A stretch of DNA of 64,000 nucleotides, taken from an uncultured Spirochaetota bacterium (GTDB lineage: Bacteria > Spirochaetota > Spirochaetia > SZUA-6 > CAVTHK01). This document shows, piece by piece, positions 5,898 through 23,222 of this stretch (the first letter of the stretch is position 1; every line of letters starts with the position of its first letter). Made by a program: the position numbers and the translations under genes. The DNA lies in NCBI GenBank assembly GCA_963734495.1, contig CAVTHK010000013.1, forward strand, positions 256,001 through 320,000. The letters are read 5' to 3'. The notes below the pieces were generated by a model. The model was not told where the DNA came from. It made no database searches and was given only the letters and a program-made list of their open reading frames with translations.

Positions 5898-8006
5898 TCA
5901 AGCGTGCTCGGCGAGGACGGCCGGCAGCAGCGGGGCCGCCTGCACCCGCGCTCGCACACCGCCCGCATCGGCTTCGAGCCGCACCCGGGCGCCGGTGCAC
6001 ACGTCGCGCAGCTCGCGGCCCGCCCAGAACCCGTCGCGGAACCAGACGTCGGCGCTCGCGCGGCCGGCCGGGAGAAAGACGAACACGACGCGGCCGCGGG
6101 TGCCGCGGCCTGCGACGATGTGGACAAAGCCGCCCGGCCCGGCCTCGGGGTCCACGGCCCTGAAAGGCCGCGGCGCGTGGCTGTCACAGATCCAGCCGAT
6201 GAAGCGCTCGAAGTCGCGTCCTGCATGCTGGAGGTAAGGGCCGCCGAGGTAGCTGCCGCACAGCAGCAGGCGCCCTCGCCCCGCTGCCGCCGACACCACC
6301 ACCGGCCCGCAGGCCGCCGTCGCCAGCGCCTCGCCGCCGCGCATCGGCGTGAGCCACTGCTCGCCTGCCAGCGCGAAGCGCTCGCCCCCCGCGCGCACGT
6401 CGAGGGGCGAGCCGTCGAGCGGGCGCCGGCCGAGCTCGGCGACGCCGGCGAGACGCGCGGGCAGCCGGTCCTCCGGGTACCGGTAGATCCCCGCCGGCGT
6501 GAACGCGCCGAGCTCGGACTCGGCCACGAGCACGCCTCCCGCGCGCACGAACTCCTCGAGCCTGCGCTCCGTCTCTTCGCTCAGGGCGACGGCGCGCGGG
6601 CAGAAGAGCACGCGGATCCCGTCGAGGTCATCGAGGTGCTCCTCCTCGATCACGCTGTACGGGATCGACTCGCGGACGAGCGCGCGGCAGGTGCCTTCGA
6701 TCCCGTTCATGGCCCGCTCCGGCGTCCCTTCCTGCGACCAGTAGAGGTAGTAGGACTGCGGGCTGAAGAGCACCCCCACCTCGCCCGCGTCGGGGCGATA
6801 GCCTTGGAGCGCGTCGCGGCAGGAGGCCAGCGCCTCCGCGGTGCGGCGAAAGCCGGCGAGGCGCACCGAAGCGAGCCCGTCGCCGCCGGTGATGCCGTAG
6901 CCGCTCGACTCCTGGCCGAAGACCTCGTCGCGCCAGCACCAGAAGAGGATCGTGTCGGCGCCTCCCGCCACGCCGGTCCAGAGCCACCGCTGCTGAGTGG
7001 CCGCGTCCACCGCGTCGCTCAGGTCGAAGGCCTTGTTTCCCCGGCCTCCCTGCAGCTCGCTCAGCCAGAGGCGCGTCCTGCCGCGCGCGGCCGAGCGGCC
7101 GTAGCCGACGCGGGCGGCGAAGTTCGCTTCGTCCTGCCCGTACCAGCGCGGAAAGCTCGAGAAGCCCACCGCGTCCGCGGCCTCCGCGAGGTGCCAGTCG
7201 TTCCCCCTGTTGAGCGCGGTGTCGAACGCTTCCAGCGTGCCGGGGTGCAGCGGCGAAGGCCGCGCTCCATGGACGGTGACCGGCCGCCCGGGGTCGAGCG
7301 CCTTCACGACCTTGTAGCGCGTCGCCGCGTGGTTGTTCGCGCGCCAGGTGAGGAAGTGCTGGAACGCCATCATCTCGGTGTACGGCCGGGACGGCAGCTT
7401 GCCCGGCCGGACCTGGTCCCACGATGCGTAGCGCCTGCGCCAGGCGCGGTTCAGCTCGTCCAGCCCGCCGTAGCGCGCGTCGAGCCAGGCGCGGAACGCG
7501 GCCAGAGTGTGCGGGCACCAGCACACGAGACCGTCGGCCTGCACGTTCCACCGCAGCTCGTTCCAGATGTCCCAGCCATGCAGGTGAGGCAGGTCCCGGT
7601 ACCGCGTCACGACGGTCTCGAGAAACGCCCGCATGCGCGCCCAGACTTCGGGGTTGTCCCAGCAGCCGCCGGGGGTCAGGCCGAAGTGGCACTCCACGCG
7701 GCTCGACGAGACGACGCGCGCGCCGGTGTTCGTGATCATCTCGCTGTCGGGGACGACGTCGTGGATCCAGAGCGGGTGCACCTCGGCGATCGTGCTGAGC
7801 ACGACGCGCAGCCCCTCGTCCGCGGCGATCTGCACGAGCCGGTCGTAGTCCTCGAAGCGGAGCTCACCCGGCTCGGGCTCGACCCACGCCCAGACGACCC
7901 AGAGCTGCACGGCGTCGAAGCCGCTCGACTTCATCAGGCGCAGGTCTTCGACCCAGTAGCGCTCTTCCGGGAACGGCGGACGATAGTACTGCGAGCCGAT
8001 GATCAT
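5898..8006 (-). CDS. Beta-galactosidase, GH42-like
   Basis: GSQYYRPP, WAWVEPEPG, WDIWNE, WLSELQGG, trimerisation-domain-like C-terminus; ATGA overlap with upstream gene. Confidence 0.85.
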   Translation of the reverse strand: MIIGSQYYRPPFPEERYWVEDLRLMKSSGFDAVQLWVVWAWVEPEPGELRFEDYDRLVQIAADEGLRVVLSTIAEVHPLWIHDVVPDSEMITNTGARVVSSSRVECHFGLTPGGCWDNPEVWARMRAFLETVVTRYRDLPHLHGWDIWNELRWNVQADGLVCWCPHTLAAFRAWLDARYGGLDELNRAWRRRYASWDQVRPGKLPSRPYTEMMAFQHFLTWRANNHAATRYKVVKALDPGRPVTVHGARPSPLHPGTLEAFDTALNRGNDWHLAEAADAVGFSSFPRWYGQDEANFAARVGYGRSAARGRTRLWLSELQGGRGNKAFDLSDAVDAATQQRWLWTGVAGGADTILFWCWRDEVFGQESSGYGITGGDGLASVRLAGFRRTAEALASCRDALQGYRPDAGEVGVLFSPQSYYLYWSQEGTPERAMNGIEGTCRALVRESIPYSVIEEEHLDDLDGIRVLFCPRAVALSEETERRLEEFVRAGGVLVAESELGAFTPAGIYRYPEDRLPARLAGVAELGRRPLDGSPLDVRAGGERFALAGEQWLTPMRGGEALATAACGPVVVSAAAGRGRLLLCGSYLGGPYLQHAGRDFERFIGWICDSHAPRPFRAVDPEAGPGGFVHIVAGRGTRGRVVFVFLPAGRASADVWFRDGFWAGRELRDVCTGARVRLEADAGGVRARVQAAPLLPAVLAEHA

Positions 8007-10416: not shown

Positions 10417-11301
10417 CTATCCCTTGATCGCGCCGGCGGTGAGCCCCTGGATGACGTGGCGCTGCAGGATGAGCACCAGGATGATCAGCGGCACGGTCAC
10501 CGCGACCGAGGCCGCCGACATCTCGCCCCACGGGAACTCGTACTCCCCCTGGATCAGAAGGATTCCGATCGGAACCGTCTGAGCCTGGGCAGACTGCGTC
10601 ATCGTGAACGCGATGAGAAAGTCGTTCCACGCCGCCACGAAGTTCAGGATCGACATGGTGAAGATGCCGGGCACCGAGAGCGGCGCGATCACGCGCGTGA
10701 GCGCCTGCACGGGCGTGCACCCGTCGATCAGCGCCGCCTCCTCGAGGGAGAGCGGGATCTCGCGAAAGAAGTTGGTCAGCACCCAGACCGTGATCGGCAG
10801 CATGAACGAGACGTAGGGCAGGACCAGCCCCGCCCGCGTGTTCATCAGCCCCAGAGCGCGCATCACGAGGAACAGCGGCCCGAGCACTGAAATGGTCGGG
10901 AACATCGAGACCGCGAGGATGCTCATGAGGATGATCCGCTTGCCCTTGATGTCGATGCGGGCGAGCGCGTACGCGGCAAGCCCTCCGGTGAAAATGCTCA
11001 CGAAGGTCGTGACGCTCGACACGATCAGGCTGTTGCGGACAAAGTCGGCCATGTGATAGCGGGTAAAGGCCGCCACGAAGTACCGGCCGCTGATCGGGTG
11101 CGGGTAGAAGTCGGGCGGGATCTTCGTGACGTCGCCCGGCATCTTGAGGGAGGTGTTCACCATCCAGTAGAAGGGGAACACGATGACCGCGACGAACACC
11201 ACGATCAGCGCATAGAGCAGGACGTTCGACAGTGTCCGCTTGAGCTTCAGGGGCCGCCTCGTGGCGAGCATGGCCTCGTGGGCAGCGAGTCGGGCGCTCA
11301 C
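10417..11301 (-). CDS. Carbohydrate ABC transporter permease
   Basis: LEEAALIDGCT EAA motif; GTGA overlap with upstream permease. Confidence 0.9.
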   Translation of the reverse strand: MSARLAAHEAMLATRRPLKLKRTLSNVLLYALIVVFVAVIVFPFYWMVNTSLKMPGDVTKIPPDFYPHPISGRYFVAAFTRYHMADFVRNSLIVSSVTTFVSIFTGGLAAYALARIDIKGKRIILMSILAVSMFPTISVLGPLFLVMRALGLMNTRAGLVLPYVSFMLPITVWVLTNFFREIPLSLEEAALIDGCTPVQALTRVIAPLSVPGIFTMSILNFVAAWNDFLIAFTMTQSAQAQTVPIGILLIQGEYEFPWGEMSAASVAVTVPLIILVLILQRHVIQGLTAGAIKG

Positions 11302-12195
11302 TGGGTAGCCCCCCCGGTGAACTCCAGTTTCAGGCCCCTGATGTAGAAGAACGCGAAGATCACGCAGAACAGCACGATCAGCATGACGCTCGCCGACCCG
11401 TAGCCGAACTGCAGGAACGTGAACATGTGCATCTGCGAGTAGATCATCAGCGTCTCGGTCGACTCGAGCGGCCCGCCCTTCGTCATCCCGAAGATCAGGT
11501 CGAAGGCCTTGAACGCGTTCAGCGTCGTGAACAGCAGCGTGATCCCGACCGTGGCCCGCAGGCTCGGCATCGTGATGCGCGCGAACTTCTGCCAGCCGCC
11601 CGCGCCGTCGATGTCCGCGGCCTCGTAAAGCTCCGTCGGGATCGTCTGCAGGCCCGCCAGCAGCAGCAGGGCCGCGAACGGCGCCCCCCTCCAGATCCCC
11701 GAGATCTGCACCGCCACCATCGCCTGCGGGATCTCGTTCAGCCACGAGACGTTCTGCTTGATGAGGCCGGCTCCTATCAGGAGGTAGTTGGCGATCCCGT
11801 AGAGCCCGTCGAAGATCCAGGCCCACGTACGCGAAACGATGATCGGCGGCATCGCCCACGGGATGAGGATGAGGCTGCGCACGACGCCGCGGCCGGGAAA
11901 CTGACGGTGCATGACCAACGCCATGGCGAGGCCGAGAGCGAAGATGCCGGCGGTCTGTCCGACGATGAACACCGCGGTGTTCATCGTCGCATTCCAGAAC
12001 CGTCCGTCGGTGAACAACTCCACGTAGTTCCCGAAGCCCACGAAGTGGTTCTTCCACATCTGGCTGAGCTTGTACTGGTAGAAGCTGAGCTGCACCGTCC
12101 GCGACGACCGGGAACCCGATCACGACGATAAGCAAGAGCACCGCCGGGGAGACCAGGATGTAGCCGAGCTGCCTTCGGGTCGGGGAGAAACGCAA
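11298..12195 (-). CDS. Carbohydrate ABC transporter permease, frameshift near 12100
   Basis: LYEAADIDGAG, MTKGGP; TTG start after GGAGG; first TM helix in a different frame. Confidence 0.85.
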
Positions 12196-12251
12196 GCAGG
12201 CCTCCAGGCGAAGCGCGGGGGCCGGCTGCCGGCTCCCGCGCTTCGGAAGCG

Positions 12252-13529
12252 TTACTTCATGACTGACGTGATCTTTTTGGCCGCGGCCGCGAGCGAGTCC
12301 TTGACGGACTTCTCGCCGTAGAGGGCCGGCATCACTTCCTGGCTGATCGCCTCCGTGATCTCGGCGTACGCCGGGGTCACCGGGCGGGCAACCGCCACGT
12401 TGTAGTTGTTCGCGAGCGCCTTGAGGAACTCGGGGTTCTTGGCCACGTACTCGGGGTCGGACATCGCCTTCTTGTTGGGCGTGGTCTGGCCGAACTGCAG
12501 AACCTGGGTCCTCATCATGTCGTCCTCGGAGAGCGTCCTGATGAACTCGACCGCCGTCGTCTGGTTCTTGGAGAAGGCGTTGACGCCGTTGTTCCATCCC
12601 CCGATCACGCTCACCTGGTCATGGCCAGGGAAGCTGGGCGGGGTCCCGACACCGACCTTCCCCTTGACTTTCGAGCTGTCCTGCTGGAACCGGGCCCAGG
12701 AGTAGTCCCAGTTCATCGTGAACACTGCGCGCCCCTCGTTGAACACGATGCGGGCGTTGTCGGTCGTCAGGCTCAACACGTCCTTGGGCGCGATCTTCTG
12801 CCTGGCAATCGCGTCCGCCATGAGCTGCAGGGCCTCCGCGTTCTCGGGGCTGTCGATCGTGACCTGGCTCAGATCCTTGCTCATGACGCCGCCGCCGTTG
12901 CTCGCGATAAAGAGCAGGAACTGGCAGAAGATCTGGTTTCCGCGCTCCCACGAAGCGACGAAGCCGAAACGGTCGGGAGCTCTGGAGCTTGAGCGCCTGC
13001 TGACCGAGATCGTTCCACGTCGTCGGCACCGCCATGCCCGCGCTCGAGAGGAGGTCCTTGCGGTAGTAGAAGTCCAGCGTGTCCGCGGTCAGCGGGATCC
13101 CGTAGAGCTTGCCGTTCCAGAGGCACGCGTTGAAGAAGGCGGTAGAGTTCCGGTCGCGGACCTCATTCACGTTGAAGAACTTGTCGAGGGCGAAGGATCC
13201 ATCCGGACGAGGCGAACTCGCCGGTGTCCACCGTGTTCATCAGCACGACGTCGATGGAGCCATCCTTGGCCGCGAACATCGTGACGTACTTCGCCCTGCG
13301 GTCGACCGAAGTGTTGGGCGCCGGGACGAACTCCACCTGGACGTTCGGGTACTTCTTGTTGAAGTAAGCCCCGTAGGCCTTGTCGAGGTTCTCACTGGCT
13401 GCTCGTATTGATCATGGCGGTGATCTTGCCCTGCACCTGGCCGGCCTTGCTCGTCTCGCCCTGCCCGGTCGCGTAGACCATCGCCGCCATGAGCAGCGCC
13501 GCGAGAATGAAACACGCTCGTCTGAGCAT
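12252..13529 (-). CDS. Sugar ABC substrate-binding protein, about 3 frameshifts (~12980, ~13200, ~13395)
   Basis: Signal peptide MLRRACFILAALLMAAMVYATGQGE; GKLYGIP...FYYRKDLL; VIGGWNNGVN; ARPVTPAY spread across successive frames. Confidence 0.82.
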
Positions 13530-13724
13530 TCTCCACCTCCCCCTGCGGTAGCTCCGCGTGCGCGGACGCTGCCCGGCGGGCTGGCCGCAGGCTCGCGTCA
13601 AATTTGGTCACAGGGTGCCGGTTTGTCAACGAGATTTGCGCCCGCGTGCGCCAGCGTGCGCCCGCGAATCTTGACCCCGCGACTCGCTTGAACTAACATC
13701 CGCGATCACACTCCGGGAGGCATC

Positions 13725-15907
13725 ATGGCACGATCGACGGACGCACGCGTCAGGGTCGCCGGGCAGCATGCGCGGGTGACCGTCACGGCTGCGAGCGATC
13801 GCACCGCGAGGATCACGGTGGCGGCCGCCTCCGACGCGGGCCTTCCGCCGGACGAGCCGGTGCTGGCGCCGCGCGCGTGGCCGGAGCCGGCAGCGAGCTT
13901 CGACGCGCTGCCGGCGGAGGTGCGCCTTGCTGCGGGCGCGCTCACGGTGAGCGTCTCGCGCGGCGGGAACGGCATCGAGATCGCGCTCACCGACGGCTCG
14001 CGCCAGCTGCGCCTCGAGATCAGCGCCGACGCGCACGAGCTGCTGTTCGACGCCGGCCGCGGGCCGCTGTACGGGCTCGGCGCCGGGGGGACGCAGCAGA
14101 TGGACCGGCGGGGCGGCGTGTTCGAGCCGCTCAACGGCCAGATCGCGGGCGAGCAGGAGGAGTTCGGCGCGAGGGTGTACATCCCCCTGCTGCTGAGCGC
14201 CGAGGGCTGGAGCCTCTTTGTCCACCGCCCCTTCCACGCCACTGTCGACCTGCGCGGCGAGCGCGGGCGCCTCGCGGCGGGCGGCCTTCTTCCCCTTGAC
14301 CTCTTCGTAACGGTGGCCGGCGACCCTGCGGCGCTGCTTTCCGAGCACGCCGCCCTGGTCGGCCCCACGCCGCTTCCTCCGAAGTGGGCCCTCGGCTACC
14401 AGCAGTCGCACCGCACCCTCACCTGGCGCGGCGAGGAGCAGGTGCTGAAGACCGCGCGCACCTTTCGGGAGAAGCATCTCCCCTGCGACACGCTCATCTA
14501 CCTCGGAACCGGCTTCTGCCCCGCGGGCTGGAACAGGGGCCACGGCTCCTTCGAGTTCAACGCCGTCTTCGACGACCCCGAGGCGACGCTCGCCGAGCTC
14601 CACCGCATGGGCTTCAAGGTGATCCTGCACGTGCTCGCGCATCCCAAAGGGCTGCACGGCAGCGTGCAGCGAGGCGCCTGGCGCGCGGCCGCCCGCGGCG
14701 GCGGACCCGGCCGATGCGCGCGCCTACTGGGACAAGCACCGCTTCCTGCTCGAGCCGCGCCTCGGCGTCGACGGCTTCTGGCCCGACGAAGGCGACGACG
14801 ACGACATCCCCGCGCGCCTGGCGCGCCATCGGCTCTACTGGGAAGGACCCGTCGCGGAGCGGCCTGACGTCCGGCCGTTCTCGTTCCACCGCAACGGCTA
14901 CGCGGGCATGCAGCGCTGGGGCGGCAACATCTGGTCAGGCGACACGTTCGCGTGGTGGCGGACGCTCAAGTCCCACGTGCCCATCGCGCTGAACGCGAGC
15001 CTGAGCGCGACGCTCTACTGGCAGTCGGACACCGGCGGGTTCTTCCCCACAAAGGAGCTCACAGGCGAGCTGTACGCGCGCTGGTTCCAGTTCTCCGCGT
15101 TCTGCCCGATCTTCCGCAGCCACGGTCGCACGTGGCACCTGCGGCGGCCGTGGGGCTGGAACACGGGCGATCTCGGGCCCGACGAGGCGGGGACCGGCTA
15201 TCGCGGGCTCCCGGGTCTCGGCAATCCCGACGCGTCCGAGCTGCACAATGCCGAAGTGGAGCCGATCTGCCGCAAGTACCTCGAGCTGCGCTACCGCCTG
15301 CTCCCCTACATCTACAGCCTCGCGTGGGAGGCGTGGGCCCGGGGCATGCCGCTGATGCGGCCCCTGTGGCTGCACTTTCCCGACGACGAGGCGGCGGTCC
15401 GCTGCTCCGACCAGTACATGTGGGGCCCTTCGATCCTCGTCGCCCCCGTCCTGGAAAAGGGCGCGGCGTCGCGCAGGGTGTATCTCCCGCGCGGGCCTCT
15501 GGTACGACTACTGGACGCGCGAGGCGATCGAAGGCGGCCGCACCGTGGAGCGTCCGGTGGATCTCGCGACGATGCCGCTCTACGTCCGCGCGGGGGCCGT
15601 GCTCCCGCTCGACCCTGTGCGCGAGCACGTCGGCCAACCGGTCGACGCGCCAACGACCCTCGAAGTGTGGGAAGGGGCCGACGGCTCGTTCCTGCTGTAT
15701 GACGACGACGGGGTCAGCCTGGAGTATAGACAAGGGAAGGGCGCCCTCACCGCCCTCACGTGGAGCGAGGCCGGCAGGACCCTCACGCTCGAGAGACGCG
15801 GCGGAGCGAGGGCGCCGGCGCCTGTGCGATACGCGGTACGCAGCGCGCTCCGCGACGGACCGCGCGAGCTCGTCTTTGACGGCCGTCACGCGTCCGTCGT
15901 ACTGTGA
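13725..15907 (+). CDS. Glycoside hydrolase family 31, frameshifts near 14690 and 15495
   Basis: PPKWALGYQQSHRT, FWPDEGD, IWSGDT, ELRYRLLPYIYS, LYDDDGVS. Confidence 0.87.
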
Positions 15908-18423: not shown

Positions 18424-18924
18424 ATGAAGACGGTTGTCCACCCCGGATGCTCGCTCGTGCTGACCGGCGACGCGAGGGGTGTCTCGGTGATCTGCGGCCA
18501 GGGCGTGCTCTGGCTCACTCAGGAGCGCGACGAGCGCGACCACATCCTCGCAGACGGCGAGACCTTCGTCGTCGACCGCCGGGGCCGCGTGGTGATCTCG
18601 TCGCCGCTGGAGTCCGAGGTCGCGCTCGCGGGACGGCCGCGGCGCGGCCTGCTCGGGCTGCCGCTGTGGAGGACGCGCCTGGCGCCTCACCCCGCGATCC
18701 GGCGGCCCGCGCCGCCTGCGGCGCGGCCTGTGACGCCGGTCTACAGCGAGTCGACGTCGACGACCTGGCCGGTGTCGAGCGAGCGGATCGCGGCAAGAAT
18801 CACCCGCAGGCCCCGGAGCGCGTCCTCGCCCGAGCCGTCGATCTCCTCGGGCTTCGCGCCGGCCGCCACCTGGCGCACAAAGGCGCGCAGGCGCGCGCGG
18901 AAGGTGTCGTCGAACCCCGCGTAG
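18424..18924 (+). CDS. DUF2917-like small protein (true stop probably earlier; ORF runs into the convergent gene)
   Basis: CGQGVLWLTQERDERDHILADGETF matches the G.VW.T.....D..L..GE pattern; GGAGG RBS. Confidence 0.7.
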   Translation: MKTVVHPGCSLVLTGDARGVSVICGQGVLWLTQERDERDHILADGETFVVDRRGRVVISSPLESEVALAGRPRRGLLGLPLWRTRLAPHPAIRRPAPPAARPVTPVYSESTSTTWPVSSERIAARITRRPRSASSPEPSISSGFAPAATWRTKARRRARKVSSNPA

Positions 18925-19742
18925 CCGCCAAACACCGGGTTGGTGAAAACGCGCTTCTCCAGGTTGCCCGCGGGGTACAGCGTCGCCTCGCGCCACATGT
19001 CGTCGACCACGAGGCGGCCCTTCGTGCCCGCGATCTCGCAGCGCTCCATCGGGTGGCCGCGCTCGATGTCGTAGCTGCTCGTGAGGTGCCCCACCGCGCC
19101 GTTGGCGAACTGCATGTTGAACGACGCCGTCGACCATATGTTGCGGCCCGGTGCCGTCATCGCAAAGCAGTGCACCCGCCTCACCTCCCCGCAGTAGTAC
19201 CGCATCATGTCCACGCTGTGCGGGTTCAGCGCCTTGATGTGGTAGGTGCGCGACTCGAGCGGCTGGAACTTCCCGATCCAGAGGGCCATGTTGCAGAAGA
19301 GGAGGTCGCCGAGGAGGCCTTCATTCTGCCATTTCTTCGCCTGGAGTGCGGCGGGCGTGAACCGGTGGTTGAAGTCGCACCCGAGGCAGAGGCGCTTCTC
19401 CCTGGCGCTCGCCACCATGGCCTGTGCAGGCTCGAGCTCGTTGGAGATCGGCTTCTCGACGAGCACGTGGCAGCCCGCCTCGAGGGCCTGCAGCGCCGGT
19501 TTCGCGTGGTCGCTCGCGTACTCGTAGCCGCCCGTTGCGACGCTCACGATCGCCGGCTTCGCGGCGCGCAGCATCTCGCGCGCATCCGTGTACCAGGCAA
19601 CGTCCAGCCTGCGCCCGGCCTTCTCGGCCCGGTCGGGGAGGATGTCGCACACGGCGGCGAGCTCCACCATCTCGTCGCGCTTGTAGAGATCGGCGTGCAG
19701 GTTCCCGATGGGCCCCAGGCCCACGACGCAAACCTTCACCAT
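18741..19742 (-). CDS. Gfo/Idh/MocA oxidoreductase
   Basis: VVGLGPIG Rossmann motif, HVLVEKP, FNHRFTP. Confidence 0.92.
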   Translation of the reverse strand: MVKVCVVGLGPIGNLHADLYKRDEMVELAAVCDILPDRAEKAGRRLDVAWYTDAREMLRAAKPAIVSVATGGYEYASDHAKPALQALEAGCHVLVEKPISNELEPAQAMVASAREKRLCLGCDFNHRFTPAALQAKKWQNEGLLGDLLFCNMALWIGKFQPLESRTYHIKALNPHSVDMMRYYCGEVRRVHCFAMTAPGRNIWSTASFNMQFANGAVGHLTSSYDIERGHPMERCEIAGTKGRLVVDDMWREATLYPAGNLEKRVFTNPVFGGYAGFDDTFRARLRAFVRQVAAGAKPEEIDGSGEDALRGLRVILAAIRSLDTGQVVDVDSL

Positions 19743-19772
19743 GAGAGCCCTCCCCCCGACGCGGCGCCCCTG

Positions 19773-20610
19773 CTACTTTCGTCCCGCGCCGCGCCGCTTG
19801 TCGGCCTCGAGGACGCGGTCGCGGACCGCGATCAAGTTGTCGGCGTTCACGTACTCGAGAACAAAGGGTAACCCTTCGCAGTGCTGGTGGTACAGGTCCA
19901 GGAACAGCGGCCAGTCGATGTCGCCGTCGCCGACGACGCGCCCCTTGGCGTCGTTGACCTTGCGGTCCTTGCCGTGGAAGTAGCCGATGTGGGGCGCCAG
20001 GTAGCGGAACATGTCCTCTTCGGAGCTGTTGGCGATGAGGTTCGCGGGGTCGAGCAGGACCTTGATCCGGTCGGAGCCGACCTGCGCGATAAAGTCGCGC
20101 GTGCGCTTCGCGCTCGGGACGGGGTCGAGCACGCACGACTCGAGGCACACGTGCAGCCCGTGCCGCGCCGCGGCCACGGCCAGGCGCTGGAAGCTCAGCA
20201 CGAGACGCGCAAAGTCGCTCTCGTAGGTCTCCAGACGCACGCCTCTCGCTCCCGGGCACGAAGCCGGTCTCGGTCGAGACATAGGGGACCCCGTTGGCCT
20301 CGGCGATCTCCATGTGCCGCTCGAAATAGTCGATGTTCTCGTCGAGCTCGCGCTCGTCGGGCTCCATGAGGTTGGTAAAGACTCCGATCGCCGTGACCTC
20401 GACGCCGCGGCCGCGGTAGGTCTCGACGATCTCGCGCGCCCGCTCGTCGGTCAGCCCCGAGATGTCGGAGCGGCCGTTGTAGACCCAGTACTTCGAATCG
20501 GTCTGCGAGAAGCAGAGCTCGGTCCAGCGGAACCCGTTGCTCGCGAGGAGGTCAGCGGTCTCGCGATTCGAGAGCTGCGGAAAGCTCCTGGTCACGACTC
20601 CGACGTCCAC
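19773..20610 (-). CDS. Sugar phosphate isomerase/epimerase (xylose isomerase-like TIM barrel), frameshift near 20245
   Basis: VSTETG, CLES, LLDPANL, FHGKD, GDGDIDW, VLEY. Confidence 0.85.
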
Positions 20611-20688
20611 GGCATGCCTCCTGCGGAACGGTACCACGGCGCCGGGTCCGCCGCCTCCATGAAAGCGCCAGCCGCAAGCATGATCGGG

Positions 20689-22196
20689 TCAGGGCGCGCC
20701 GCTGCGGTGCGTAGCGCGTCCCCTCGCCGGCGGTCAGCGCGCGGTAGGCGACGGCCGTCCGCCCGTAGTCGCCGCCGCGGTCGAGCGCGTAGCCGCGGCC
20801 GACCGCGGTCGCGACGGCGAGCCCCGCGAGCTCGTCCGCGTGCCGATCCAGCAGGTCCGCTCCGGTCTCGCCGTGCCCGTCGAGGATCAGGTGAAGCACG
20901 ATCCTTCCGGCGCCCGCGCTGCGGGCCGCCTCGGCGATGGCGAGGGTCTCCCCGATCGTGCCGTGGGAGCTGGTCTCGGACAGCATCCCGATCAGGTGCA
21001 CGACCGAGCCGCGGCGCGCGGCCCCGCGCGCGAGCGCGGCGAGGCGCGAATGGCCCGCAAACCCGTCGGCAAACGCGCGGCGCAGCCGCAGCTCGTCCTG
21101 CTCGACGACCCTCCCCGCGCCGATCGTGAGGTGGCCGGCCTCCGAGTTCCCGCCGCGGCCCGCGGGCAGGCCGACCGCCACGCCCGACGCCTCCAGGCGC
21201 ACGAGAGGGAGCCGCGCGCTCAGGTCCGCGAGGTGGACCGGCGCCGCGGCCGCGATCGGGTTCGTCTTCGGGTCATCGGGACCGAGGCCCCATCCATCCA
21301 GGATCACCAGGGCCAGCTTCGAAGCGCGGGCGCGGGGGAAGACGAGAGCCGTTCCCGTCATCTCGGCGGGCGCGGGGATCCCGAAAAAGCGCAGCGCGGT
21401 GGGCGCGACGTCCGCGAGGCTTCCCTCGCGCGCGCGGAAGTCCGCGGCGCTCACGCGCCCGGTCCGACACCAGGAACGGGACGAGGCTCGTCGTGTGGGC
21501 GGTTCCCGGGGTGCCGTCGGGGTTCACCCCCACTTCGAGAAGCCCGTGGTCCGCCGTCACCAGGACGGCCGCCTCGGCGGCCGCGGCGGCGCGGAGGATC
21601 CCGCCGAGCGCCTCGTCCACGGCGCGCACGGCGGCGACCTTGGCTTCGAACGCCGGCAGATGACCGACAGTGTCGCCCGCGGCAAAGTTCACGAGCACGA
21701 AGTCGTGGCCGGAGAGGCCCTCGGCGGCGGCGGCGCCTGCTTCCGCGGTGCCCGCGACCACTCTCGTTTCGTGCAGCGGCAGAGGCTCGTTGCGGCGGCC
21801 GTTGAAGAAGAAGGTGACGAGCGCGCGCTTTTCGGCTCTCGCTCACGGCGAGCTGCCGCAGCCCGGCGCGGCCGAGGGTTTCGCCCAGCGTGTTGGCGGG
21901 GCGGAGAGGCGGGATGAGCGGCTCGACCCGTATGCCCGGATCGTATTCGACGAGAGGCACGAACTCCAGGCCCGGCAGGGGCATCCGCTCGAAAGTGCGG
22001 GAAACTCGCGGGACGTGAAGGCTTCGGTGAGCTGCGCCTCGCGGTCCCCCCTGCGGCAGCAGAAGATCGCCACGTCGCCGGGGCCGATGCGGCCGGCCGG
22101 GCCTTCCGCCCCCGCGGCCACGAGGGGCCGCATCCACGTGTCGGTCTCTCCCCGCGCGTACCGCGCGCGGAGCTCTGCGGCCAGTCCCGTGCTCAC
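20689..22196 (-). CDS. gpmI: Circularly permuted 2,3-BPG-independent phosphoglycerate mutase-like protein, several frameshifts
   Basis: All iPGM motifs present (ILDGWG, GNSEAGH, GRGYALDR, VTFFFNG, DTVGH, TADHG, TAHT, LADVAPT, EMTG), but the canonical C-terminal half precedes the N-terminal half; ends approximate. Confidence 0.85.
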
Positions 22197-22203
22197 CGGG
22201 CTC

Positions 22204-22233
22204 ATTGTCCCGGGAGGCATCGCCGCGTGTCAA
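22204..22233 (-). promoter_or_regulatory. Sigma70-like promoter for the permuted gpmI-like gene
   Basis: TTGACA-18 nt-GACAAT, 7 nt before GTG at 22196. Confidence 0.6.
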
Positions 22234-22320: not shown

Positions 22321-23222
22321 ATGACGGTCGCGACAAGGGGCTCCTCGGCGGCGTCGGTGCGGGTCCTCCCCGCGTCGCGGGTGTTCCACGACGAGGGGTT
22401 CCCGCTGCACGCCATGGTCATCGACCAGTTCGACCTCGACCGGCACAGGCACGACTTTACCGAGATCGTCGTGGTGCTCGACGGCGTGGGCGACCACCTC
22501 TTCGACGAGCGCGTCTACCCGATCTGCGCCGGCGACGTCTTCGCGGTCGACAAGAGCCACGCGCACGGCTACCGCAACACGCAGGCCCTGCGGATCGCCA
22601 ACGTGCTGTTTGACGAGCCCTTCCTCACCGCCCGCGCGCCGTGGGTCGAGCGTCTCGCCGGATACCAGGCGCTGGTGCACCTGGAGCCGACGCTGCGCAA
22701 GCAGCAGGCCTTCGGCGGCAAGCTGCGCCTCGGTCCGCAGGCCATGGCGCGCGCCGGCGAGCTGGTCCGCAGGCTGCTGGAAGAGCTGCGCGGCGCCGCG
22801 AGGGCTACCGCGCGATGGCCTTCGCCCTGCTCACCGAGCTGCTGGTGGACCTCGCGCGCTGGTACGCGGGCAGCGACGTCCAGCAGACCCGCGACGTGGC
22901 CGACGTCGGCCGCGTGATCAGCTACCTCGAGAACCACTACCAGGAGCCCGTCGAGCTCGCCGACCTGGAAAAGCTCGTCGGCCGGTCCACCCGGACGCTC
23001 CTGCGGCGCTTCAACCAGGCGACGGGCCTGACCCCGATCCAGTACCTGCTGCGCGTGCGCGTCGCCCGCTCCTGCGGCCTGCTCGCCGCAAGCGCCCTGT
23101 CCATCACGGACCTCGCGGGGCGCGTCGGCTTCGAGGACAGCAACTACTTCGCGCGGCAGTTCCGCCAGGTGATGGGCATGAGCCCGTCGGAGTACAGGCG
23201 GAACACGAGGGCGCCGCAGTGA
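22321..23222 (+). CDS. AraC-family regulator (RhaR/RhaS-like), frameshift near 22800
   Basis: Cupin HRHDFTEIVVVLDGVG; C-terminal GFEDSNYFARQFRQVMGMSPSEYR. Confidence 0.88.

Follow-up and report, generated by a model that had tools for sequence, protein, structure and literature searches.

A natural circular permutant in the cofactor-independent phosphoglycerate mutase family of an uncultured Spirochaetota bacterium

The sequence analysed was a 64,000-nucleotide window (positions 256,001 to 320,000 of the forward strand of contig CAVTHK010000013.1, assembly GCA_963734495.1) from the genome of an uncultured Spirochaetota bacterium, which is represented by 18 contigs totaling 5.38 Mb at 83% completeness. 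The minus strand of this window carries, from bp 20689 to bp 22220, a gene that resembles cofactor-independent phosphoglycerate mutase (iPGM) and is read across four frames in the assembly; in a family scan of the whole genome it was the sole iPGM_N locus. iPGM, a two-domain enzyme of glycolysis familiar from textbooks, is a drug target in parasites and in bacteria. A first-pass annotation of the window had proposed that the gene is a natural circular permutant, opened within the transferase domain and with its old termini linked, and this was borne out by alignment to the solved structure 1EJJ, by an intact open reading frame (ORF) from the same genus, by short-read contigs that bridge the junction and by a structure model.

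The window gene was compared with P0001, an intact permuted protein of 520 amino acids (aa) encoded by a second genome of the same genus (G001; 220 contigs, 99% complete), and was found to be colinear with it in four segments, all on the minus strand, each 56-64% identical and free of internal stops. The first segment (bp 21999 to 22187) corresponds to residues 10-73 of P0001 and approximately 215-280 of 1EJJ; within the transferase domain it forms the C-terminal part (positions 137-200 of the iPGM_N profile), and it contains CRRGDRE, which carries the equivalents of Arg261 and Arg264. The second (bp 21829 to 21993; P0001 75-129) crosses hinge 2 to reach the phosphatase domain, ending at the SESRK motif with the Lys336 equivalent. 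The third (bp 21423 to 21842; P0001 125-273) is the C-part of the phosphatase (Metalloenzyme) domain, in which DTVGH, TADHG and AHT supply the equivalents of the metal ligands D403/H407, D444/H445 and H462. The fourth (bp 20702 to 21457; P0001 262-516) holds the old C-terminus, a linker, the old N-terminus with ILDGWG and GNSEAGH, and the N-part of the transferase domain as far as ...AYRALTAGEG. Within this last segment, the linker VFPRARAS joins the old C-terminus to the old N-terminus through 8 residues (bp 21320 to 21343), and the codon of the predicted phosphoserine nucleophile, the Ser of GNSEAGH equivalent to Ser62 of 1EJJ, is located at bp 21143 to 21145.

According to the accessible part of PMC5382265, canonical iPGM consists of a phosphatase domain and a transferase domain joined via two hinge peptides. 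Pfam places iPGM_N as a nested stretch at residues 82-299 of a canonical 512-aa protein. The window gene has these parts in swapped order. Pfam analysis matched the upstream piece (bp 21843 to 22220) to iPGM_N positions 137-200, the middle piece (bp 21273 to 21761) to Metalloenzyme 143-225, and the downstream piece (bp 20552 to 21454) to Metalloenzyme 2-62 followed by iPGM_N 10-132, and the genome-wide family scan agreed. The ORF at bp 20552 to 21454 runs uninterrupted from ...LADVAPT...EMTGTAL through VFPRARAS to KLALVILDGWG...GNSEAGH. The first-pass annotation expected two swapped diagonals in a dot-plot against canonical iPGM, and alignment to solved structures gave two swapped stretches: residues 5-213 of 1EJJ correspond to 308-513 of P0001, and residues 222-509 to 17-300. 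The first approximately 300 residues of the permuted protein match the last 300 or so of canonical iPGM, and its last 210 or so match the first 210 or so, with 30-35% identity per half. The part left unaligned to 1EJJ amounts to about 8 residues at the new termini, in agreement with the earlier statement that nothing was duplicated or lost between the halves. NCBIfam and Pfam profiles both matched in two swapped stretches, and the canonical colinear order (phosphatase N-part, transferase, phosphatase C-part) was not found. As all 11 solved iPGM sequences gave the same swapped two-stretch match, none of the solved structures is of the permuted form.

These results show that the locus encodes a genuine, natural circular permutant of the iPGM family. 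The chain begins in the transferase domain just past the ...GEG motif (approximately 214-222 of 1EJJ) and passes by way of hinge 2 along the C-part of the phosphatase domain; a linker of 8-12 residues then leads to the old N-terminus and, after hinge 1, to the N-part of the transferase domain, with which the protein ends. The nesting of the two domains is inverted, the phosphatase domain forming one continuous stretch and the transferase domain being split, and both hinges are kept.

The search for homologs with the same order returned a large family. Across the junction, P0001 and the window piece have 64% identity, and when P0001 was used as a query, all of the best 120 clusters at 90% identity were found by half-wise BLAST to be permuted, with single local alignments that covered 89-99% of P0001 except for one at 46%. 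The best 150 representatives at 50% identity comprised 20 permuted, 128 canonical and 2 partial sequences. Two scans of species-representative genomes identified 6 permuted loci out of 93, including Butyricicoccus pullicaecorum ET57; an Anaerolineae query retained 80 loci (L122-L201; 63-100% identity), every one of them permuted, and a Kosmotogaceae locus (L113) is permuted as well. Loci of Desulfosarcina and Verrucomicrobiales were also considered as permutants and were rejected, being canonical by both Pfam and half-wise tblastn. The source names of members include Mesotoga, Kosmotoga, Thermotogota, Bacillota, Clostridia and Anaerolineae, and by record name the cultured carriers are at least B. 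pullicaecorum ET57 and Mesotoga sp. H07.pep.5.3. In all 45 aligned members the linker is at the identical place, 8-12 residues long and variable in sequence, and the new termini coincide. The permutant is thus a large bacterial family that extends across several phyla, and not a one-off.

Database product names for these proteins are generic: '2,3-BPG-independent PGM' (a phosphoglycerate mutase that is independent of 2,3-bisphosphoglycerate), 'alkaline phosphatase family protein' or 'sulfatase-like hydrolase/transferase'. No description of a permuted iPGM was found in full-text literature, a collection that holds few subscription journals, so that one may exist elsewhere, and the string 'permut' is absent from the accessible part of a survey of 338 iPGM sequences (bioRxiv 10.1101/2024.10.28.619893). 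A tandem iPGM-iPGM fusion of approximately 1000 aa, as might be expected of an intermediate, was not present among the 5 longer proteins found, one of them a PGK-iPGM fusion and four of them algal multidomain proteins, which is weak evidence. Among long proteins, P0311 is a 917-aa iPGM of canonical order fused with a PGK domain (PF00162), P0312-P0315 are Closterium proteins of 1650-1780 aa that combine an iPGM of canonical order with peptidase-M16-type domains, and P0192, a giant protein of 5027 aa encoded on a 15.6-kb contig, has at residues 3851-4372 a permuted iPGM domain with the canonical-type pocket motifs AVHA and DGRD.

Structure prediction, which had been named as a check on the permutation, gave a confident model with the iPGM fold. 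The AlphaFold2 model was built on 61 permuted sequences and had a mean predicted local distance difference test score (pLDDT) of 95.6 and a predicted template-modelling score (pTM) of 0.92. The block of residues 301-310, which contains the linker, had a mean pLDDT of 94, and only residues 1-5 and 517-520 were disordered. VIA-align superimposed residues 7-301 of the model on 212-510 of 1EJJ (Z 21.5, root-mean-square deviation 3.6, 291 residues). The top Foldseek matches were all iPGMs, with approximately 278 columns aligned to 1EJJ at a template-modelling score of 0.46, or roughly half the chain; sequential aligners place only one half, as is expected of a permutation.

Residue equivalents were mapped through the alignment to 1EJJ in 45 permuted and 123 canonical rows. 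For the Arg, Lys, His and Asp residues we assume the substrate-binding roles described for 1EJJ. Every one of the 45 permuted rows has the equivalents of D12, S62, H66, H123, R185, D190, R191, R261, R264, K336, H339, D403, H407, D444, H445 and H462, and 42 have that of R153, the window copy having His at this position. The permuted family therefore retains both the iPGM_N substrate clamp (H123, R153, R185, R191, R261, R264, K336) and the two-metal site with its Ser nucleophile (D12, S62, D403, H407, D444, H445, H462), the metal-ligand and nucleophile roles being those given in the part of PMC5382265 that is accessible. All of the metal and nucleophile motifs (ILDGWG, GNSEAGH, DTVGH, TADHG and AHT) are present in the window copy.

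Two positions in the pocket differ from the canonical enzyme. Residue 154 is Asp in 123 of 123 canonical rows, whereas among the 45 permuted rows 37 have Ser, 5 Asp and 3 Gly, so that DGRS mostly replaces DGRD; and the GGV that precedes His123 is changed to xSS in 41 of the 45, giving xSSHG for GGVHS. Four permuted members (P0137, P0138, P0167 and the P0192 domain) nevertheless keep the canonical GVHS and DGRD. A search of the literature for the role of Asp154 returned nothing usable. Judged from these alignments, the pocket around His123 and Asp154 is remodelled in the permuted family.

Because the two-metal site and the serine nucleophile are kept, the permuted enzyme should work through a phosphoserine intermediate like iPGM. 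The phosphoryl group would pass from the substrate to the Ser encoded at bp 21143 to 21145 at the two-metal site, the acid moiety would be repositioned in the transferase domain, and the phosphoryl group would then be returned, as in iPGM. The substrate is probably 2- or 3-phosphoglycerate (2PG, 3PG) or a close phospho-acid, since the arginines and the lysine that hold phosphoglycerate are kept.

The upstream end of the gene is less certain than its downstream end, with ATG 22220, ATG 22205 and the in-frame GTG 22196 all candidates for the start codon. The sigma-70-like site TTGACA-18-GACAAT reported by the first-pass annotation is indeed present on the minus strand (bp 22233 to 22204), matching at 10 of 12 positions, and sites of this type occurred in shuffled sequence with a mean of 0.0. 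The site shares bases with both ATG codons; its -10-like hexamer (22209-22204) runs into ATG 22205 and lies downstream of ATG 22220. GTG 22196 may be the real start, which would give a leaderless or near-leaderless mRNA.

In the window the permuted gene is followed on the same strand by an AP_endonuc_2 (xylose-isomerase-like) TIM-barrel gene (bp 19776 to 20637, minus strand), which is split over two frames, and then by a GFO_IDH_MocA oxidoreductase gene (bp 18744 to 19772, minus strand). An AraC-family regulator (bp 22426 to 23219, plus strand) is divergent, with its AraC_binding/cupin and HTH_18 parts in two frames. In G001 the order is AP_endonuc_2, permuted iPGM, solute-binding protein, fused permease and ATPase with TOBE_2, the best NCBIfam match of the binding protein being the 2-aminoethylphosphonate PhnS2 type, below cut-off; in the Kosmotogaceae locus it is AP_endonuc_2, permuted iPGM, RpiR, an ORF without a Pfam match, fused permease and ATPase with TOBE_2. 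The adjacent TIM-barrel gene was considered as a conserved partner within the genus and was rejected, as the neighbours in the window and in G001 are only 27% identical over 105 residues (E 0.019).

Gene neighbours were also counted in the 80 Anaerolineae-type loci (permuted gene at approximately bp 6001-7560 of each), and these counts are lower bounds, as some contigs are short. On the same strand as the permuted gene, one to three TIGR02253-like HAD hydrolases lie directly upstream in at least 72 of the 80 loci, and an ApgM-type gene (NF003160, 568 bits, over cut-off) lies mostly directly downstream in at least 55; PRK/uridine-kinase-family genes are found in at least 60, an RpiR regulator in at least 36, a PhnU2-like fused ATP-binding cassette (ABC) permease in at least 22 and an MFS transporter in at least 17. 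On the opposite strand are a LacI regulator (at least 39), a UxaE-like gene (at least 29) and an SDR gene (at least 23). HAD genes are directly upstream in Clostridiales and Butyricicoccus loci too. No glycolytic neighbour was present in any annotated context of the permuted gene.

Another type of phosphoglycerate mutase (PGM) was found in every genome checked, namely five of five carriers as well as the window genome. A canonical iPGM scoring 658-746 bits accompanies the permutant in three of the five carriers (G041, G042 and G044), and a fourth (G043) has GpmA (393 bits) together with ApgM. There are two ApgM-type genes in G001 and one in the window genome. At C51:538-2776 of G043, an Anaerolinea-type metagenome-assembled genome, the permuted iPGM is followed immediately by the ApgM-type gene in the same orientation.

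Taken together, the best explanation of the locus is a natural iPGM permutant that belongs to an old paralogous clade, would work by an iPGM-like mechanism and may have a specialised role, with the frame breaks in the window copy most likely being assembly errors; we put the probability of this full account at roughly 85%. Its functional part is the most open to doubt. The change at Asp154 and GGV, the co-occurring PGMs and the non-glycolytic operons, in which kinases and phosphatases are combined with a second mutase-like enzyme and an importer, point to a specialised paralogue, and the odds are about even that its substrate or role is other than the housekeeping interconversion of 3PG and 2PG. 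A more specific and tentative version, which we consider possible but would not favour outright, is that the permuted clade is not a PGM at all and constitutes a new phosphotransferase or mutase in an undescribed pathway for an imported phospho-compound, in which the permutation preceded the pocket change (Asp154 to Ser, GGV to xSS) and the latter retuned the substrate. Such a pathway would comprise the HAD hydrolases, the permuted enzyme, the ApgM-type enzyme, one or more PRK-family kinases, an RpiR or LacI regulator and a PhnS/U-like ABC importer. It would be conserved in at least 55-72 of the 80 species genomes of Anaerolineae type, with some of its parts also present in Kosmotogaceae, Bacillota and the genus of the window genome.

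Two observations count against the best explanation. Neighbourhoods vary among lineages, the TIM-barrel genes of the window and of G001 not being orthologues, and P0001 scores 365.2 against TIGR01307, above the cut-off of 330.65, so that an unchanged PGM function is possible. Under that alternative the permuted enzyme would be a second isozyme of the glycolytic 3PG/2PG mutase, with a neutral permutation, which we regard as somewhat doubtful but a serious contender. All catalytic and nearly all substrate-binding residues are conserved, the four other members scored against TIGR01307 also exceed its cut-off (377-485 bits), and P0137, P0138, P0167 and the P0192 domain keep the canonical motifs of the pocket; the score against NF003897 was 307, with a cut-off of 862. 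An isozyme fits poorly, however, with the replacement, in most permuted rows, of Asp154, which is invariant in the canonical rows, and of the GGV that precedes His123, with the presence of another PGM in each genome examined, and with neighbours that are HAD hydrolases, ApgM, PRK-family kinases, RpiR/LacI regulators and PhnS/U-like ABC importers.

The history of the permutation was examined with an unrooted tree of 69 rows and 514 columns, made up of 29 permuted sequences, restored to canonical order, and 40 canonical sequences. A main permuted clade of 25 rows was recovered with a Shimodaira-Hasegawa-like approximate likelihood-ratio test (SH-aLRT) support of 98. The free tree speaks against a single permuted clade, as the four permutants with canonical pockets and the canonical P0267 were placed between the main clade and the 39 other canonical rows. 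The permutation could have had two origins at one and the same site, the first in the main clade and the other in P0137/P0138/P0167/P0192, a view favoured by the separate placement of these four in free trees and by their retention of canonical pocket motifs. We consider this unlikely: the branches that separate the four are weakly supported (SH-aLRT 80-82), the cut site and linker position are common to both groups, and a tree constrained to hold all permuted rows together had a log-likelihood 5.99 above that of the free tree (approximately unbiased test, p 0.567). A single permutation event is consistent with the data and is the simplest reading, and it is likewise consistent with them that the permutation is old and defines a paralogous clade in several bacterial phyla. 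We infer that the permutation came first and the pocket change later.

Frame breaks interrupt the window copy near bp 21996, 21835 and 21440, and a fourth, at 20698, alters the C-terminal tail. The first-pass annotation had attributed such breaks to indel errors. They were compared with short-read contigs from four public wetland-metagenome runs at a likeness of at least 88%; a search of sequencing runs for the habitat gave word shares of no more than 0.15 and no habitat conclusion. At the first break (bp 21989 to 21998), contigs of runs X1, X3 and X4 are one base short at 21989/21990 and one at 21998, and at the second (bp 21829 to 21842) an X3 contig is one base short at 21837, whereas the third (bp 21423 to 21457) is outside the coverage of the compared contigs. 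The extra base at 20698 is absent in an X3 contig, and its removal restores the family-typical tail ...AYRALTAGEGTRYAPQRAP* with a stop at 20689-20691, so that the end coordinate of 20689 given earlier was correct. Base 22202 is absent in X1 and X4 contigs. One related short-read contig has an in-frame 3-base gap at 21334, inside the linker. The junction itself, for which coverage by reads had been proposed as a check, is bridged in other samples by X3 record 18 (20864-21362) and X1 record 5 (21210-21393).

Similar breaks occur elsewhere in the assembly. In the same genome, rpoB on contig C3 is in 7 pieces over three frames and the ApgM-type gene is split over two, and the AP_endonuc_2 neighbour and the AraC regulator (22325-23219) are likewise frame-split. 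Within the window region 11301-15904, a GH31 gene (13692-15904) is in three pieces and a solute-binding protein gene (12255-13411) in two. Gene calls throughout the window therefore need a frameshift-aware reading. The window genome bin also has two rpoB loci, one shattered (C3:43503-47297) and one nearly intact in a single frame (C16:21064-24438), suggesting that the contigs differ in base quality or that the bin includes a second organism (contamination 4.7%).

Since rpoB, GH31 and other genes are split alike, and since contigs are one base short at four of the five break regions, the breaks in the window copy most likely reflect bases wrongly inserted in an indel-rich assembly, and not decay; the four break sites are those that the first-pass annotation had named. 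Against this it must be set that no compared contig covers 21455-21511, so that a real frameshift near 21440 is possible; that the compared contigs, 88-99% alike and from other samples, represent relatives and not reads of this genome; and that at 20840-20890 (minus strand) the window copy reads LILDGHGETGADLL where G001 has LILDGRSSPPQGAADLL, with His in place of Arg153 and a loop that is shorter by 3 residues. This last difference could reflect relaxed constraint, and no indel was found at 20840-20890 in the short-read contigs that cover it. A decaying pseudogene with real frameshifts would account for at least four frame breaks in 1.5 kb, for the break that escapes contig coverage and for the altered loop, and yet it is improbable, as an essential gene such as rpoB is in 7 pieces and at least five other genes are split, making the breaks a property of the assembly, as contigs of other samples have one base fewer exactly at the break regions, with three runs in agreement at 21989-21998, and as each segment keeps its identity to P0001 without internal stops. 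Misassembly, in which the assembler joined two iPGM halves in the wrong order, could appeal to the low base quality of the assembly and is for practical purposes refuted by independent assemblies, the junction recurring as an intact ORF in the same genus, in all 120 top protein clusters from many sources and in 87 further genome loci, and bp 21320 to 21343 being bridged by X1 and X3 short-read contigs.

With its nesting inverted and every catalytic residue kept, the permuted iPGM is well suited to testing how inserted domains and the movement of their hinges withstand rewiring. Metabolic reconstructions may count a PGM where the protein does something else, because pipelines label permutants as iPGM, 'alkaline phosphatase family protein' or 'sulfatase-like hydrolase'. 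The conserved Anaerolineae operon hints at a possible new pathway.

The closest known system is canonical iPGM (GpmI/GpmM; TIGR01307; PDB 1EJJ, 1O98 and 5VPU), with which the permutant has in common the Metalloenzyme and iPGM_N domains, the metal ligands, the Ser nucleophile, His123 and the Arg/Lys clamp. It differs in that its termini are at approximately 213/222 of 1EJJ and the old termini are linked, in that Asp154 is mostly Ser and GGVHS has become xSSHG, and in its co-occurrence with other PGMs in a non-glycolytic context. ApgM (PF10143 and PF01676; TIGR00306) belongs to the same Metalloenzyme superfamily, but its inserted domain is PhosphMutase and not iPGM_N; the permutant has no PF10143 match by Pfam and scores 36.6 bits against TIGR00306, with a cut-off of 320, over approximately 70 residues of the phosphatase C-part only, and is not a member of that family. 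Phosphopentomutase (DeoB) shares the alkaline-phosphatase-like core with an inserted cap (Z 11.2-11.6 over approximately 171-175 residues) but differs from the permutant in cap domain and substrate, and a score of 29.6 bits against NF003766, with a cut-off of 256, places the permutant outside that family as well. As for permutation itself, the eukaryotic and bacterial glutathione synthetases are described, in the accessible part of PMC2876114, as natural circular permutants of one another: there, as in the permuted iPGM, the fold is the same and the start of the chain is shifted, so that annotation based on sequence is misled or misses the relation, but the enzyme family is a different one.

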